Positions 57,889 through 63,223 are shown, counted from the first letter of the stretch. The stretch: DNA of 64,000 nt from Candidatus Thorarchaeota archaeon (GCA_048884965.1 JBHLQH010000003.1:129809-193808), one strand, 5' to 3'. Translations and numbers: made by a program. Notes: generated by a model not told the origin, from the sequence alone.

Positions 57889-59397
57889 ATGCTATCTGAT
57901 TCAGATGTCAATCTTGTCAACCTAATACGCGTCACAGGATTCCGAGAGGAGTTCATCAAAGAAGCTATGGCAAATAGAGGTGACGAGTGGAATCAGATCT
58001 CAGCATCGGTCACTGAGCATAAACGGATTCTGGATTTGGGCGAGAAGCATACTCGGCAAAAGGCCATTCAGGACCCTGTCCATGGTGCAATTCTCCTTGA
58101 ACCCTGGGAGCTGGACGTCATATCTGGATGGGAGATGCTCAGATTGCGTTATGTCAAGCAACTCGGACCTGCGCATATAGTCTATCCTGGGGCAACGCAT
58201 ACCCGATTTGAGCATTGCATAGGAACGAACTTTCTTGCTCAGAAATGCATTCGTGTCGTCAACTATTGTGATGATATGGAAGACCCGCGTTTCGTCCCTC
58301 TTTCGCAGCTCCTTGATGACTACCATCAGAAGGTATTCAGAGCTGTTGCATTGCTCCATGATGTAGGGCACCCTCCTACATCTCACACCATTGAGTTCGC
58401 TCTGGAGAATTGGGCTCATCTATCTCATACTGATCTCGGTGCATTCCTCATCTTGCACAGTGATCTCTCAGATGTCTTAGAGGCGAGTGGAATCGATCCC
58501 ACCTCTGTAGTCGATGTGCTAAAGCGACGCTCGAAGGACCCAATCATGAAGCTCCTTTCAGAATTCATTGACAGTCCTCTAGATATTGACAAAACAGACT
58601 ATCTCATTCGAGACGCTCATTTTAGTGGTGTCGAACTTGGCATCTTCCCTGCAGAGCGTGTCCTACTCACGAATCGTGTCGTTCGAGATAGAAAAGGCGA
58701 CTACCATCGTGCATTCATGTTGAAGGCTCTCCACTCATTGGAAGCACTGATACTCAGCAGGTCTTGGATGTTCTCTGACCTCTACCTGCATCATGCTGTT
58801 CGCGTGGCTGAAGCATTGACATCCAAAGCGACATATTTCCGATTGAAGGAAGAAGCCTTCTCTAGAAACGAGTGTATAGGCTTCTTCACCCGCATGACGG
58901 ATGGTGACCTCTTCAGATGGCTCGAGAAATCTGAGATACCCTTTGTGAAAGAATACGCAGCGAGGATACGATATAGGCGACTCTTCAAGATAGTTACTGC
59001 CAAGCCTATCGCTCTATTTACTGAAGATGCTAAGACACGGCTTCTTCATTTCATGAAGGATATCGAATCCCTTGTTGAGGCAGAGCTACAGGTAATGGAA
59101 GAGCCTGGGCAGGTCATCATTGACGTTGTGGACCCTATCCTTGGAGAGAACTTCCTTAGTCATATACCGATTCTCATTGGTGGTGAATCAGGATTCGACT
59201 TGGTGAAACTCAGCAACACTGAGGAAGGAGGCCCTTTGATGGAAGCACTCTCACAACAGCGCAAAACCATTCCAGCTGTACGAGTGTATGCAGATCCTAG
59301 GAACGCTGTGGCGGTAAGAAAGCGCTTTGATGAAATCTTCCCTGCTCAGGACAAACCCCGACGTCGAGAAGACGATTATGAATTCTCGGAATACTAG
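57889..59397 (+). CDS. HD-domain phosphohydrolase, SAMHD1/COG1078-like
   Basis: DPVHG, RLRYVKQLG, YPGATHTRFEH, LLHDVGH..SH..E, DIDKTDYLIRD, LYLH. Confidence 0.92.
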   Translation: MLSDSDVNLVNLIRVTGFREEFIKEAMANRGDEWNQISASVTEHKRILDLGEKHTRQKAIQDPVHGAILLEPWELDVISGWEMLRLRYVKQLGPAHIVYPGATHTRFEHCIGTNFLAQKCIRVVNYCDDMEDPRFVPLSQLLDDYHQKVFRAVALLHDVGHPPTSHTIEFALENWAHLSHTDLGAFLILHSDLSDVLEASGIDPTSVVDVLKRRSKDPIMKLLSEFIDSPLDIDKTDYLIRDAHFSGVELGIFPAERVLLTNRVVRDRKGDYHRAFMLKALHSLEALILSRSWMFSDLYLHHAVRVAEALTSKATYFRLKEEAFSRNECIGFFTRMTDGDLFRWLEKSEIPFVKEYAARIRYRRLFKIVTAKPIALFTEDAKTRLLHFMKDIESLVEAELQVMEEPGQVIIDVVDPILGENFLSHIPILIGGESGFDLVKLSNTEEGGPLMEALSQQRKTIPAVRVYADPRNAVAVRKRFDEIFPAQDKPRRREDDYEFSEY

Positions 59398-60077
59398 GTG
59401 AGATGAACTACCATTTCGAGAACTTTGCGAAATCCCATCTCTATATAGATCACACCATAGAAGGCCTCAACTAAGGTGCCTTTGATATGCTCCATCTCAG
59501 ATTTTGTAGGCGTTGGAGGATCAAAGTGAATCCTGTTCTCGTAAAGACTCCACTCATCACACTTCTTAGAGAGATGCTCATTACTGACAAGTCCTGATCT
59601 TCTCTCTGTCAGATATCCCACATCTGATGCACGGGGTTTCCATATGTGATGTAGAATTGCCATATCTATAGTTGCATCTCCCAAGAGAGCAAGCATCTTT
59701 GCGGTTTCACTCAGAGCGACCATATCTGGGAGCGATTGACACTCTTCAAGTACAGCTTCTACATCGCAATAATGGGTTTCAAGCTCAAGAAAGAGATTCT
59801 TCGTGCTAGGTTGAAAGAGTGAAACTGTGAAGAGTCCCTTCTCGTTGAGGTCAAAGTCGAATATCTCCTCCAGCCGAGGTGCGAGTACCTCTTCCGCATA
59901 GGTCACTCGTTGAATTATATAGGCCAATTGATCGAGCCACTTCCCCATCTTTGTTCTTGTGCGTGTATTCTTTACAGGGACTTCTCCAAGGTCCTGCTCG
60001 ACAAGATTCTTTATGCCTACTAGATTCTCCTTCAGATAGAGTCTGTGCCAATCGAGAACAGAATCACCAAGTGTCAT
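59394..60077 (-). CDS. Ribonuclease III family nuclease domain protein without dsRBD (Mini-III-like)
   Basis: LALLGDATI, RSGLVSNEHL, GTLVEAFYGVIYIEMG; ATG at 60077 after GAGGTGA. Confidence 0.82.
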   Translation of the reverse strand: MTLGDSVLDWHRLYLKENLVGIKNLVEQDLGEVPVKNTRTRTKMGKWLDQLAYIIQRVTYAEEVLAPRLEEIFDFDLNEKGLFTVSLFQPSTKNLFLELETHYCDVEAVLEECQSLPDMVALSETAKMLALLGDATIDMAILHHIWKPRASDVGYLTERRSGLVSNEHLSKKCDEWSLYENRIHFDPPTPTKSEMEHIKGTLVEAFYGVIYIEMGFRKVLEMVVHLT

Positions 60078-60906
60078 GATTATCACCTCGCGGAGAGTAT
60101 TGTACGACCTTCGCTCGTTCGTCCTCATAGTTATCGACATGGATTGCAGTGATAGAGTACTCCTCTGCTAGCCGTATCATACCCAGAATCGTAAGTGGAG
60201 TGCCTATGGACAGGTCGATAAGGACGTTATGGGTCGGGATGACCTTCACTACTTCATTACGAATGAATTCATACACAGCCTGTAGATTTCCATGCTGTGT
60301 GTCCTCATGCTCCGTTGTAATTTCAACAGGGATATCGATCCACTCCGTTTCTATGTCCATTTGCCCACGTGATTCGCCTGTCATGAACCTATCCAATGAC
60401 CGGAGGGTCTGACGTTTCCATACTCGTGCTTCTGTGAATAGGAGTAGTTTTCGAGGTTTGAACTGCTTGCTTCTTTTCAACCAAATCGCAAAAGGTCGTT
60501 GATCATCAGGCTGTCTGATAGATGCGACATATGCCAAGGGTCGTGACACCTCCATGAGACCCATCTCCTGCAAAGCTCTTCTTACAGGATGGTATGCCCG
60601 TAGACAAAGCTCGAACACTCGCTCTCGGGACTCCCGTCGGCTCCGTATGATCCCTAGCTTCTCGAGGTGCGATGTGTTATGATAGAGCTTGGGATCAGTC
60701 ACTACAACCTTCTTCTCTTTTGCAGTCTTCTTTCCCTTCTGATCGATTAGAGTCGCAGCCATATCCTTTCGGATGCTTTCACGGAGCTCAGTACCTGTCT
60801 TTGGTCCACCTTCCAATTGATCCAAGATGATTCTTCTGGCGCGAACGCTCTCAATCTCGTTCTTGATGATATCATCAGCAGTCTGGGACAACATAGGCAT
60901 CACCAT
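60064..60906 (-). CDS. N-terminal ArsR-like wHTH fused to C-terminal CARF-like Rossmann domain
   Basis: RRIILDQL..GP.T..EL...LYHNTSHLEKLGII; then LAYVASI / PRKLLLFT / EWIDI / VLIDLSIGT-helix / AIHV strand pattern. Confidence 0.7.
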   Translation of the reverse strand: MVMPMLSQTADDIIKNEIESVRARRIILDQLEGGPKTGTELRESIRKDMAATLIDQKGKKTAKEKKVVVTDPKLYHNTSHLEKLGIIRSRRESRERVFELCLRAYHPVRRALQEMGLMEVSRPLAYVASIRQPDDQRPFAIWLKRSKQFKPRKLLLFTEARVWKRQTLRSLDRFMTGESRGQMDIETEWIDIPVEITTEHEDTQHGNLQAVYEFIRNEVVKVIPTHNVLIDLSIGTPLTILGMIRLAEEYSITAIHVDNYEDERAKVVQYSPRGDNHDTW

Positions 60907-61233
60907 ATCAATACCTATACGACCTATATATGTTTTGTAGATAATTACTTTTCAGGAAAAATACAGTCATAATTCATCATCGTTTAGGAGCACAAAAACT
61001 GCCTAAACTGTCAAAAATGGGCTCAAACCCCTGTTTTTGCCACATACACGCCATACTGTCTTAGAACTATAAAATATACATATATCTTATATTTATCTAA
61101 TTAAAGGAGCTAAATCCAGTAAAGGCTTAAATAGAAACGAACGGGACTTTACTGCAGCACAGAGTTTTGGAAGACTTCTCTTCCAGTGGAACTTTCTGTA
61201 CTTTTCAAACGAGAAAACGAGGACCGAAATAAA
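60907..61233. promoter_or_regulatory. AT-rich divergent promoter region between wHTH-CARF and actin
   Basis: TATA-like ggcttaaata near 61125 and tatatat near 60926; short inverted repeats. Confidence 0.5.
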
Positions 61234-62373
61234 ATGGCTGAAGACGAGTTTCTTGGCGCGAAGCCCATCGTTATTGATAACGGTACTGGGCTTAGCAAGA
61301 ATGGATATGCCGGCGAGGATCAGCCCCGATCCGTCTGGCCCACTTTGATTGGCTATCCACGATATGAATCAATCATGACAGATGTTGACCACTACACCCG
61401 CGATTACTACATCGGTGAGGAAGCAATCAACCTCCGTGGTGTACTACGCCTGGTCTATCCAATCACCCATGGTGTTGTAGAGGACTGGGACGCTATCGAG
61501 AAGATATGGAGCTATACATTCTATAACGACTTGAAAGTTGACCCAAGTGAGAACCCAGTGTTGCTCACTGAAGCACCCTTCAACCCCAGAGAGAATAGAG
61601 AACGAATGGCAAGTGTGATGTTCGACAACTTCGGTGTACCCGCAGTCTATGTCGCCACTCAGGCCGTGCTATCATTGTACGCATCAGGTAGGACCACTGG
61701 TCTGGTCATCGACTCCGGTGACGGTGTTACTCACATCGTACCTGTGTACGAAGGTTTCTCAATCAACCACGCGATTCGAAGAATTGACCTTGCAGGACGT
61801 GACATCACCGAGTATCTGCGCAGGCTTCTCAGACAGAGAGGTTACTCATTCGTGAGCGGTGCAGAGAAGGAGATCGTCCGTGATGTGAAGGAGAAGCTCT
61901 GTTACGTTGCTCTTGATCCTGAGAGAGAGAGGACCGTTGCAGACAAGGCTGGTGTTGACAAGCCCTACATGCTACCTGACGGTGAGGTAATCACTGTTGG
62001 TGCAGAGCGCTTCCAGGCACCCGAGCTGTTCTTCAACCCAAGCGCCATTGGTCTAGATACAATGCCTCTCGATGAGCACATTGTCGAGTCAATCAAGGCT
62101 TGTGACGTCGACTTGCGACGTGACCTATACGCTAACATCGTCCTTTCAGGCGGTTCAACCATGTTCCCAGGACTCAAGGAGCGACTCCACAAGGAGATCA
62201 CCGAACTAGTCCCAGAGAACATCGAGGTCCGAATCATCGCTCCACCCGAGAGACAGTACTCTGTCTGGATCGGCGGAAGCATCCTTGCTTCCCTGAAGAC
62301 GTTCCAGAAGATGTGGGTTTCAAGGAAGGAGTTCGAGGAACAGGGACCCGAAGTCATACACCGCTGTATCTAA
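61234..62373 (+). CDS. Asgard actin (conserved lokiactin-type)
   Basis: [79 protein letters not shown]. Confidence 0.98.
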
Positions 62374-62430
62374 GCGTACTAGAAGTTGGAGGAGAGCTAG
62401 CGAAGCTCTCCTTCTTTCTCTCCCCTTTTT
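62329..62430 (+). repeat. Direct repeat copy 1: actin 3' end plus stem-loop
   Basis: gagttcgaggaacagggacccgaagtcatacaccgctgtatctaagcgtactag (62329-62382), then hairpin and CT tract. Confidence 0.92.
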
Positions 62431-62547
62431 CAAACACTTCTGAAAAAATCTACCATTTTCTTATTATCATATATATGCCAGAGTTTGTCGATAATACTAA
62501 TTAGGGCTCAAGTGCCAAGGATGCACCAAGGAGGCATGCATTCTATT

Positions 62548-63114
62548 ATGAGCATCCTAAGATATGAAACACAAGAGGGTAAACAAGAAGAGTTTCAAAT
62601 TGAGTCCAATGCAACTACTGTACGACTCATCGATATGAGGATATCTAGAATTGATCTTTCGCCGCTTGAGTCACATCAGGACCTTCAAGAATTGAATTTA
62701 AGTATGAATAAACTCGAAACTATTGATCTTTCTCCACTGAAATCTTGTACCAGTATAGAGAAACTCAATTTACAGAATAATAGTTTCAAAACTGTTGACC
62801 TTTCCCACTTTAGTGGATTTACAAGTTTCAAATATCTAGATTTAACAGGCAATAAAATCGAAGTATTCGACATTACTCCACTCGTTTCTTGTCCAAAATT
62901 GGAATTTTTTGCATTAGATCCTTTTACTCGCTTCAGAGGTCCAATTGACCCTCGGATTATGCATGTTATGAGAGCATCATCACCGGTTGACAAAGAATCA
63001 GTAGCATTCGCAAAAACATTGATGTCCTCTGTTCAGGCAAGCATACGCCAGATTGAGAGATCAAGTGTACGGCAAATGCGTGAAAAGGAAGAAGAAGAAA
63101 AACGGAAAAAGTGA
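62548..63114 (+). CDS. Leucine-rich repeat protein
   Basis: IDLSPL..H..LQELNLS.N.L..IDLSPL..C..IEKLNL..N repeats; visibly AT-rich. Confidence 0.88.
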   Translation: MSILRYETQEGKQEEFQIESNATTVRLIDMRISRIDLSPLESHQDLQELNLSMNKLETIDLSPLKSCTSIEKLNLQNNSFKTVDLSHFSGFTSFKYLDLTGNKIEVFDITPLVSCPKLEFFALDPFTRFRGPIDPRIMHVMRASSPVDKESVAFAKTLMSSVQASIRQIERSSVRQMREKEEEEKRKK

Positions 63115-63122
63115 ATTGCAGA

Positions 63123-63223
63123 GAGTTCGAAGAGCAGGGACCCGAAGTCATCCACCGCTGTATCTACAGCGTACTAGTTTCCGAAGGAGTGGGAGCGTTC
63201 CCCTCCTTCTTGCTCTCCCTTTT
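63123..63223 (+). repeat. Direct repeat copy 2: orphan actin 3' end plus stem-loop
   Basis: gagttcgaagagcagggacccgaagtcatccaccgctgtatctacagcgtactag (63123-63177), then hairpin and CT tract. Confidence 0.92.

Follow-up and report, generated by a model that had tools for sequence, protein, structure and literature searches.

We describe a stretch of 64,000 nucleotides from a Candidatus Thorarchaeota archaeon (GCA_048884965.1, JBHLQH010000003.1:129809-193808; "the window" below is this whole stretch), in which two overlapping minus-strand genes lie head to head with an actin gene. The first of these, gene 1, encodes a winged helix-turn-helix (wHTH) followed by a CARF domain, and the second, gene 2, encodes an RNase III-domain protein that lacks a domain for binding double-stranded RNA (dsRBD). 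The explanation that we favor, in which we place about as much belief as doubt, is that gene 1 is a ligand-responsive transcription factor acting on the promoter region shared by actin and its own operon, that the RNase III is made along with it, and that the locus is a core one that operates independently of type III CRISPR signaling. An actin-linked switch is the more likely reading than an antiviral module. The genes are laid out as follows.

60064..60906, minus strand: gene 1 (wHTH plus CARF, CARF_m5 family), an open reading frame (ORF) of 280 aa
59394..60077, minus strand: gene 2 (RNase III-domain protein without dsRBD), 227 aa
60064..60077, minus strand: 14-nt overlap of gene 1 and gene 2, from the stop and start coordinates; translational coupling
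60083..60089, minus strand: GAGGTGA, a Shine-Dalgarno-like site 5 nt 5' of the gene 2 ATG
61234..62373, plus strand: actin gene, divergent from gene 1 (Pfam Actin, E = 5e-134)

The alignment of homologues and a 100%-identical database copy of 276 aa place the likely true start of gene 1 at Met5 (60894). Its TGA occupies 60066-60064 and the ATG of gene 2 occupies 60077-60075; both the overlap and the GAGGTGA ribosome-binding site, which had been reported in a preliminary description of this DNA, are real by coordinates. The gene 1 stop overlaps the gene 2 start by 4-16 nt in 11 of 13 Thorarchaeal loci examined, and a purine-rich GGAG/GAGG is seen at the equivalent place before gene 2 in the Thorarchaeal relatives. 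Since gene 2 is directly downstream and translationally coupled, the nuclease would be made with the regulator, and in proportion to it.

Gene 1 has no match in Pfam or NCBIfam. Its AlphaFold model, which was built on 36 homologues, has a predicted local distance difference test score (pLDDT) of 84.6 and a predicted template modeling score (pTM) of 0.82, and resolves into two domains.

60565..60906, minus strand: N-terminal winged helix-turn-helix, ArsR/PadR/RosR-like, residues 1-114 (structural alignment)
60712..60741, minus strand: basic loop KGKKTAKEKK inserted in the wHTH, residues 56-65, of low pLDDT in the model
60067..60546, minus strand: C-terminal CARF domain, residues 121-280 (Foldseek, VIA, PADLOC)

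Residues 1-117 align in VIA at Z 8-9.4 to the winged helices of ArsR/SmtB, PadR, RosR, TubR, MecI, CzrA and DNA-bound NolR. The winged helix is the most conserved part of the protein, with R24, L28, G38, R42, Y75, N77 and R109 invariant across the phylum (alignment A3). The KGKKTAKEKK loop, in turn, is confined to the Thorarchaeal family, and every non-Thorarchaeal orthologue in the same alignment has a gap there. The C-terminal domain aligns in VIA to VC1899 at Z 13.4 (root-mean-square deviation 2.8 over 134 aligned residues), and further to Cdn1 (12.9), Can2 (12.4), Csm6 (12.2) and Csa3 (11.4). For this domain, the top 38 matches in Foldseek are all CARF, with E values of ~1e-5 to Csm6, VC1899, Cam1, Card1 and Can2. 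In a search of 48,161 representative chains that is independent of Foldseek, the best 15 matches to residues 121-280 are all CARF proteins, and no non-CARF Rossmann fold is among the top matches. Model and structural matches thus agree on the wHTH-then-CARF order given in the preliminary description, which had staked that order on the C-terminal domain modeling as CARF, and the motifs quoted there, KGKKTAKEKK (56-65) and DLSIGTP (231-237) in gene 1 and LALLGD (129-134) and VEAFYGVIY (203-211) in gene 2, are all present.

The sensor has a name already. The PADLOC-DB v2 profile PDLC01987, "CARF_m5--CARF", matches gene 1 with an E value of 1.3e-17 over residues 18-259 (profile positions 6-188 of 195) and extends over almost the full protein, including the winged helix. 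Each of the 22 aligned orthologues is matched too, with a best E value of 2.4e-80; many of them also match the CARF4, CARF1, CARF3 and Csx1 profiles, CARF4 being matched by 11 of the 22 (best E 8.8e-10). The sensor family is therefore not new, and the module cannot be called new on its account, as had been proposed. By profile match, gene 1 is a member of CARF_m5, a named minor CARF family restricted to Asgard archaea. A search of 1.84 billion representatives yields 18 clusters related to gene 1, all of at most 269 aa, and therefore no fused sensor-effector form is known.

Among characterized proteins, Csa3 (PDB 2wte, 6w11 and 6wxq) provides our working model for gene 1: it combines a CARF domain (Z 10.9-11.4) and a winged helix in one small protein, and it is a transcription factor that responds to a ligand, cA4. 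In Csa3, however, the CARF domain is N-terminal and the wHTH C-terminal, the reverse of gene 1, which also has no CRISPR association, and the two are only marginally alike in sequence (PADLOC Csa3, E 4e-4, confined to the wHTH part). RtcR, a CARF-AAA+-HTH activator of the RNA repair operon, is like gene 1 a CRISPR-independent CARF regulator tied to RNA metabolism genes, and it sets a precedent for a CARF domain that senses RNA ends rather than cyclic oligoadenylates. Unlike RtcR, gene 1 has no AAA+ domain or sigma-54 system and a different domain order, and RtcR is not among the structural matches of gene 1. The best structural matches to the CARF domain are the CARF4-type nucleases (VC1899, Can1/Can2, Card1 and Cdn1; Z 11.8-13.4), type III CRISPR effectors in which CARF is fused to a PD-(D/E)xK nuclease. 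Gene 1, by contrast, has a winged helix as its output domain, and the nuclease is encoded separately and has a different fold.

The distribution of the two genes was followed through 301 genomes of the phylum, of which 76 belong to the window's own Thorarchaeal family (f1), whose order contains one other family, f2. Of the 76 f1 genomes, 72 carry gene 1 and 74 carry gene 2, and the missing copies fall at contig ends (G269, G173, G164 and G275). Wherever an f1 genome has both genes on one contig (~70 genomes), they are neighbors, point in the same direction and keep the same order. Outside f1, profile A3 finds full-length gene 1 orthologues (215-260 aa, E < 1e-40) in f2, f3, f6, f7, f8, f12, f13, f15, f19, f21, f28 and f30, which by source names include Hermod-, Frey-, Jord- and other Asgard lineages. 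The same profile finds CARF-only paralogue matches, and nothing fuller, in f5, f9, f14, f22 and f24. In the 12 orthologue-bearing families, RNase III is seen in one genome only (G240, f28), as a weak match to the domain alone, on a different contig. Sporadic full-length relatives of gene 2 are found in f5, f9, f14, f22 and f24, with no CARF_m5 gene nearby. These non-Thorarchaeal relatives have no conserved context; their neighbors are thiolase, MFS transporter and URO-D genes, with no Argonaute or helicase. The co-conservation that the preliminary description had proposed for the pair therefore holds within the Thorarchaeal family, where the genes are adjacent and translationally coupled, and breaks down beyond it, where at least 12 Asgard families have the sensor alone. 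Because the orthologues in these families stand beside actin without an RNase III, the nuclease is not the defining output of the family, and control of a double-stranded RNA nuclease, which had been put forward as the core function, does not survive as such. The best reading of this distribution is that the RNase III is a Thorarchaeal addition to the CARF_m5 operon, a lineage-specific passenger or partner, and the Thorarchaeal branch of CARF_m5 is divergent in other respects too, with two inserts and the loss of the Arg/Lys of CARF motif II.

Gene 1 is single-copy, and its tree requires as few label changes across 13 families as is possible, with each multi-member family forming one clade at 95-100% support. 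The f1 copies group with f2, and a long stem (1.54) leads to the Thorarchaeal family. Judged by these phylogenetic data, the sensor behaves as a core gene of many Asgard lineages, present once per genome and passed on vertically, and not as a mobile defense system.

Neither Cas10 (Csm1 or Cmr2) nor Cas1 was found in the organism's own genome, which is 95.7% complete, and no CRISPR-like repeat array was found in the window. In the Thorarchaeal family, Cas10-like matches occur in 8-9 of ~80 genomes, or in 8 of the 76 considered above, as against 72 of 76 for gene 1. There are none in the 19 genomes of f12, the three of f13 or the three of f21, in which the orthologue is present in 12, three and two genomes, respectively. 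The presence of the sensor does not track Cas10, and the CRISPR independence claimed in the preliminary description is supported. Gene 1 has neither the CRISPR-cas locus nor the co-occurrence with Cas10 by which Csa3 and the type III ancillary CARF proteins are recognized. Two of the weaker CARF-only paralogues checked, in an f9 genome (G171; C70:13389-14785) and an f19 genome (G038; C1:2690145-2694421), do lie within ~3 kb of Cas10-like genes; the search would therefore have seen a CRISPR link for CARF_m5, and the phylum harbors classical type III CARF proteins alongside the actin-linked CARF_m5. A defense-island reading was rejected on the pattern of inheritance and on synteny, and the defense role suggested earlier is unlikely: almost every genome of the family has the gene, in one copy, the gene tree agrees with taxonomy, and the neighbors are housekeeping genes (actin, and in other lineages ComA/ComB).

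Actin is divergent from gene 1 in all 14 Thorarchaeal loci examined. Outside the Thorarchaea, 40 orthologue loci were compared: actin is divergent and adjacent in 30, tandem and downstream in one (f30), and absent in six, and three end at a contig edge at that side. Actin thus adjoins the orthologue in 31 of 37 informative loci, from 10 families. The actin beside CARF_m5 is the principal copy, which is highly conserved (65-96% identity). Unrelated genes lie upstream of actin in five genomes of f5, f9, f22 and f24 that lack the orthologue. Among the papers searched, none links lokiactin with CARF.

In four studies of sediment, mangrove and freshwater, metatranscriptome contigs match the actin gene (61195-62357) at 88-100% identity, and two pieces, 61230-61503 and 61613-61798, are identical to the window; the RNA libraries contain the actin of the organism or of near relatives. 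Two spurious minus-strand ORFs, at 61965-62357 and 62966-63151, open with the same 10 residues. This shared start reflects a duplicated actin 3' end that flanks a leucine-rich-repeat gene (62485-63114; Pfam LRR_8/LRR_4).

The spacer between gene 1 and actin is ~330 bp long, and an alignment of 11 Thorarchaeal spacers reveals four conserved elements in it.

60924..60931, no strand assigned: TATATAT, candidate TATA box of the gene 1-gene 2 operon, ~30-37 nt upstream of 60894
61066..61100, no strand assigned: conserved block with core MTAYATAGRT, candidate operator
61124..61134, plus strand: GGCTTAAATAG, candidate transcription factor B recognition element (BRE)/TATA box of actin, ~100 nt before the ATG
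61152..61164, plus strand: conserved CTGCAGCACAGAG, at the expected actin transcription start

The candidate operator block holds an imperfect AT-rich palindrome (61069-61096) and is positioned ~30-55 nt upstream of the actin TATA box, in which CTTAAAT (61126-61132), within GGCTTAAATAG, is strictly conserved. In other lineages the same region carries different inverted repeats. The stretch 35-55 nt upstream of the actin TATA box contains an 18-bp palindrome, ATAGAyGATATCrTCTAT, in f15 and variants of it in f3 and f21, and partial GATATC-centered forms are found at the equivalent position in f8 and f19. One half of the palindrome, the 12-mer ATAGAYGATATC, occurs in seven of the 81 fetched loci, and six of these occurrences are in the gene 1-actin spacer (f3, f15 and f21). 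In f12 (Hermod-type), an 11-nt perfect inverted repeat, CATCTCTATCA N10 TGATAGAGATG, takes the equivalent position. The spacer palindromes and repeats are, on this comparison, good operator candidates for a dimeric winged-helix protein. Examples of the strong palindromes between the CARF_m5 and actin core promoters in f12, f15, f3 and f21 are L018 7835-7866, L034 8016-8033 and L048 3781-3792. A further perfect palindrome of 14 bp with a GATATC core, TGATGATATCATCA, lies inside gene 1 at 60870-60885 (codons 9-13, DDII); it is not conserved as DNA in the other Thorarchaeal copies and may be a coincidence.

The actin leader that opens with CTGCAGCACAGAG folds into a 5'-proximal hairpin in each relative when the sequences are folded singly. 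The fold z-scores are weak (mean -1.15 for the Thorarchaea versus -0.54 for others), and RNAalifold on the sequence alignment gives no consensus structure. Hermod-type actin leaders carry a conserved hairpin of their own (GGGAATAC...GTATTCC) just 3' of the TATA box. An Rfam scan of 59000-62600 returned sub-threshold chance matches only, and a scan for promoters and terminators of bacterial type, a method unsuited to archaea, gave nothing above shuffles.

Taken together with the fold of gene 1, we would propose that it works as a dimeric transcription factor, with a small ligand of nucleotide type in the CARF domain modulating how it binds DNA. Its binding site would be the ~330-bp spacer, through which it would govern its own operon and probably actin. 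The gene 2 product would probably cut structured or double-stranded RNA as a homodimer. The folds, the family membership, the order of the genes, their co-conservation, the independence from Cas10 and the conserved non-coding elements are observed; DNA binding, ligand control, the actin target and the nuclease activity are what we infer.

Several results weigh against this proposal. In all five f7 genomes and one f28 genome the orthologue is retained but actin is not adjacent, and large groups (f5, f9, f22 and others) have actin with no orthologue upstream at all. A phylum-wide k-mer scan found only TATA-like words above shuffles and no operator motif common to all families; the GATATC palindrome emerged on targeted inspection only, and the Thorarchaeal block resembles it only loosely. 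Four metatranscriptome runs searched with 59300-62400 gave no contig over genes 1 and 2 and contigs, mostly from relatives, over the actin gene only. The neighborhood contains more than actin: in f7, f13, f19 and f28 the orthologue faces convergent genes for a phosphosulfolactate synthase (ComA) and a 2-phosphosulfolactate phosphatase (ComB), including the genomes that have lost the actin adjacency (L016 5412-6952; L019, L020, L022, L025 and L035), and NTP-transferase and CDP-alcohol phosphatidyltransferase genes recur nearby, in the Thorarchaea as well. These genes form an old syntenic block around actin, and in view of this wider synteny the actin adjacency could be inherited gene order without regulation. 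To these points are added the altered ligand site of gene 1 and the incomplete set of acidic residues in gene 2, both described below.

Such inherited order is the core of the alternative that survives best, namely that gene 1 autoregulates its own operon only and that the position of actin has no regulatory meaning. The conservation of other neighbors (ComB, convergent in f7, f13, f19 and f28, and the two transferases), the f7 and f28 genomes that keep the gene away from actin, and the many Asgard groups that run actin without CARF_m5 all fit this alternative. The divergent actin pair, however, survives in 11 families, far more than any other neighbor, and the palindromes are nearer to the actin TATA box, at 35-55 nt upstream, than to the regulator's own start. 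Moreover, Korbel and colleagues reportedly found in 2004 that conserved divergent pairs that include a regulator usually consist of the regulator and its target, a rule that also speaks for actin. We regard control of its own operon alone as somewhat unlikely.

The ligand site bears on whether gene 1, as an actin-linked factor, senses anything at all.

60196..60216, minus strand: CARF motif II, DLSIGTP, residues 231-237; Asp, Ser and Gly are kept, and Pro takes the place of the usual Arg/Lys

Gene 1 thus departs from the motif II pattern [DN]-x-[ST]-x-x-x-[RK], and the absence of the basic residue that the preliminary description had noted is confirmed. The Thorarchaeal consensus is DLSxGPP, with variants DLSxG(P/T)P. 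Of 12 non-Thorarchaeal orthologues, 11 keep the basic residue in the form D/E/N-x-[ST/G]-x-G-x-[RK] (DVTDGTR, DVTGGGK, DLSEGGR, NLSTGSK); the f2 copy reads DITYFGI, without Arg/Lys, and the loss is specific to the order of f1 and f2. In the motif I region, the Thorarchaeal copies read T/S-S-x-x-x-P-E-D-Q-R-P after the strand 124-129, and the other orthologues have G/S-rich loops (VCVGGSE, YIGAIG). Given the loss of the motif II Arg/Lys, ligand binding in the Thorarchaeal proteins may be altered or lost. In the latter case the CARF domain would be a dimerization scaffold of a constitutive DNA-binding protein, an alternative for which the loss in all Thorarchaeal copies and in f2, the atypical motif I, and the lack of Cas10 or another obvious source of cyclic oligoadenylates in the genome can be cited. 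The pocket loops, however, are strongly constrained in the Thorarchaeal copies (PEDQRP after strand 1 and DLSxGPP after strand 4, with W142, W189, G206 and Y250 invariant), and the domain is not decaying: along with the basic wHTH loop, this branch has gained a conserved insert of ~23 residues in CARF. By their conservation, the loops and inserts seem to fit a changed ligand better than decay, and we consider a scaffold that no longer senses a ligand to be improbable.

Gene 2 matches Pfam Ribonuclease_3 (PF00636) above the cut-off (E 2.6e-12, residues 129-214). In its model (pLDDT 91.3), a hairpin of two helices (residues 15-73) precedes an RNase III nuclease domain.

59859..60041, minus strand: N-terminal helical hairpin of gene 2, residues 13-73 (model helices H15-32 and H38-73)
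59397..59903, minus strand: RNase III nuclease domain, residues 59-227 (VIA Z 14; HMMER alignment to Drosha RIIIDa)

There is no Pfam match to a dsRBD, and residue 227, the last of the nuclease domain, is also the last of the protein; profile and structural model both bear out the earlier description of an RNase III without this domain. The nuclease domain aligns at Z 14.2 to Thermotoga RNase III (TM1102) and, at Z 12-14, to domains of other bacterial enzymes, of Dicer and of mitoribosomal mL44. In the N-terminal region W10, K43 and W47 are invariant and R39 nearly so (alignment A2), and the modeled hairpin may be an RNA- or partner-binding surface that replaces the dsRBD. Gene 2 shares the fold of bacterial RNase III and keeps its GD Asp and EA Glu, but, unlike the Class 1 enzymes (Rnc), it has no C-terminal dsRBD. 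It further differs from bacterial RNase III, Mini-III, Drosha and Dicer in its 58-residue N-terminal helical hairpin, in an insert of ~30 residues before the signature helix, and in an Ala for the first signature Glu. Searched against solved structures, the family profile scores best with Drosha RIIIDa (E 1.4e-11), then with plant and insect Dicers, and then with bacterial enzymes (4.6e-6). Mini-III also lacks a dsRBD, but it is not known to have an N-terminal extension as gene 2 does; a Mini-III identity was dropped, as the profile E value of 0.55 to Mini-III (4oun) is weaker than those to Drosha, Dicer and bacterial Rnc.

The catalytic positions of gene 2 were equated through the HMMER alignment to Drosha. 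The four canonical acidic metal-binding positions, which we take to be E41, D45, D114 and E117 in E. coli RNase III, are A130, D134, T201 and E204 in gene 2, and only two of the four are acidic. D134 (59676-59678) and E204 (59466-59468), which presumably correspond to the two residues essential in the E. coli enzyme, are invariant in 36 homologues, as are N166, H197 and K199. A non-catalytic, RNase III-like RNA-binding protein of the mL44 kind is the alternative that this pattern raises. The Ala and Thr at two of the four positions fit it, and mL44 chains are among the best structural matches (Z 13-13.8). Against it stand the five invariant residues and the Asn that Drosha RIIIDa, a catalytic domain, has at the T201 position. 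In addition, because mutants of the E. coli enzyme reportedly show that the equivalents of A130 and T201 are dispensable at high Mg2+, nuclease activity of gene 2 is plausible, and we think it quite unlikely that the protein is non-catalytic.

Gene 2 is the only RNase III-domain gene found in the genome. Archaea are still said to lack RNase III in a recent survey (PMC11404451), and gene 2 is thus unusual for the archaeal domain. Convergent on gene 2 is a plus-strand gene (57889-59397) for an HD plus HD_assoc_2 protein with a weak PADLOC dGTPase match, which is syntenic in Thorarchaeal relatives. In the sister family f2, the HD gene, the RNase III and a 212-aa ORF with no family match are all missing, and a gene for an FG-GAP/BBS-like beta-propeller lies directly 3' of the CARF gene.

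Finally, the CARF protein could bind a signal and gate the RNase III directly by forming a complex with it, as a split sensor and nuclease of the Csm6 kind that cleaves RNA in stress or defense independently of CRISPR. The strict adjacency and translational coupling across the family would suit such an arrangement, as would a nuclease without a dsRBD whose conserved basic and aromatic N-terminal hairpin could dock a partner, and the long, fast-evolving stem (1.54) to the RNase III-linked family, with two inserts that are absent from f2. The loss of the motif II Arg/Lys is not tied to the nuclease, however, since it is also seen in f2, which has no RNase III. The sensor family is present in at least 12 other Asgard families without the nuclease, the winged helix is the most conserved part of the sensor, and the full-length nuclease relatives elsewhere are sporadic and have no CARF gene in their vicinity. 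A defense island is disfavored in this case as well, by the vertical inheritance of a single copy and by the housekeeping synteny. A prediction of the gene 1-gene 2 complex scored 0.00, below the mark, and weighs neither way. Direct gating of the nuclease by the CARF protein is thus possible but unsupported, and we hold the corresponding split sensor and nuclease to be distinctly doubtful.

To our knowledge, CARF domains have so far been known almost exclusively for receiving the signals of type III CRISPR systems. The CARF transcription factor described here is a core gene of many Asgard lineages that is unlinked to Cas10 and stands head to head with actin, with palindromes by the actin promoter. 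The proposal that it is a ligand-responsive factor on this promoter region is testable with two small recombinant proteins and a 330-bp DNA fragment. The rare archaeal RNase III that accompanies it has profile scores closer to Drosha and Dicer than to the bacterial enzymes and bears on the origin of eukaryotic RNase III, although profile scores alone make no claim of origin. In a more far-reaching form of the proposal, which we consider unlikely, CARF_m5 would be an actin-dedicated factor that senses nucleotides or RNA ends in many Asgard lineages, and the Thorarchaeal RNase III would act on the 5' hairpin of the actin leader, so that actin would be set both at transcription and at RNA processing. 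If actin is regulated by CARF_m5, the protein would be the first candidate for a dedicated regulator of an Asgard cytoskeletal gene and an example of a defense-type sensor domain in housekeeping control. In the more far-reaching form, the forerunner of the eukaryotic cytoskeleton in archaea would be under the control of a second-messenger switch.

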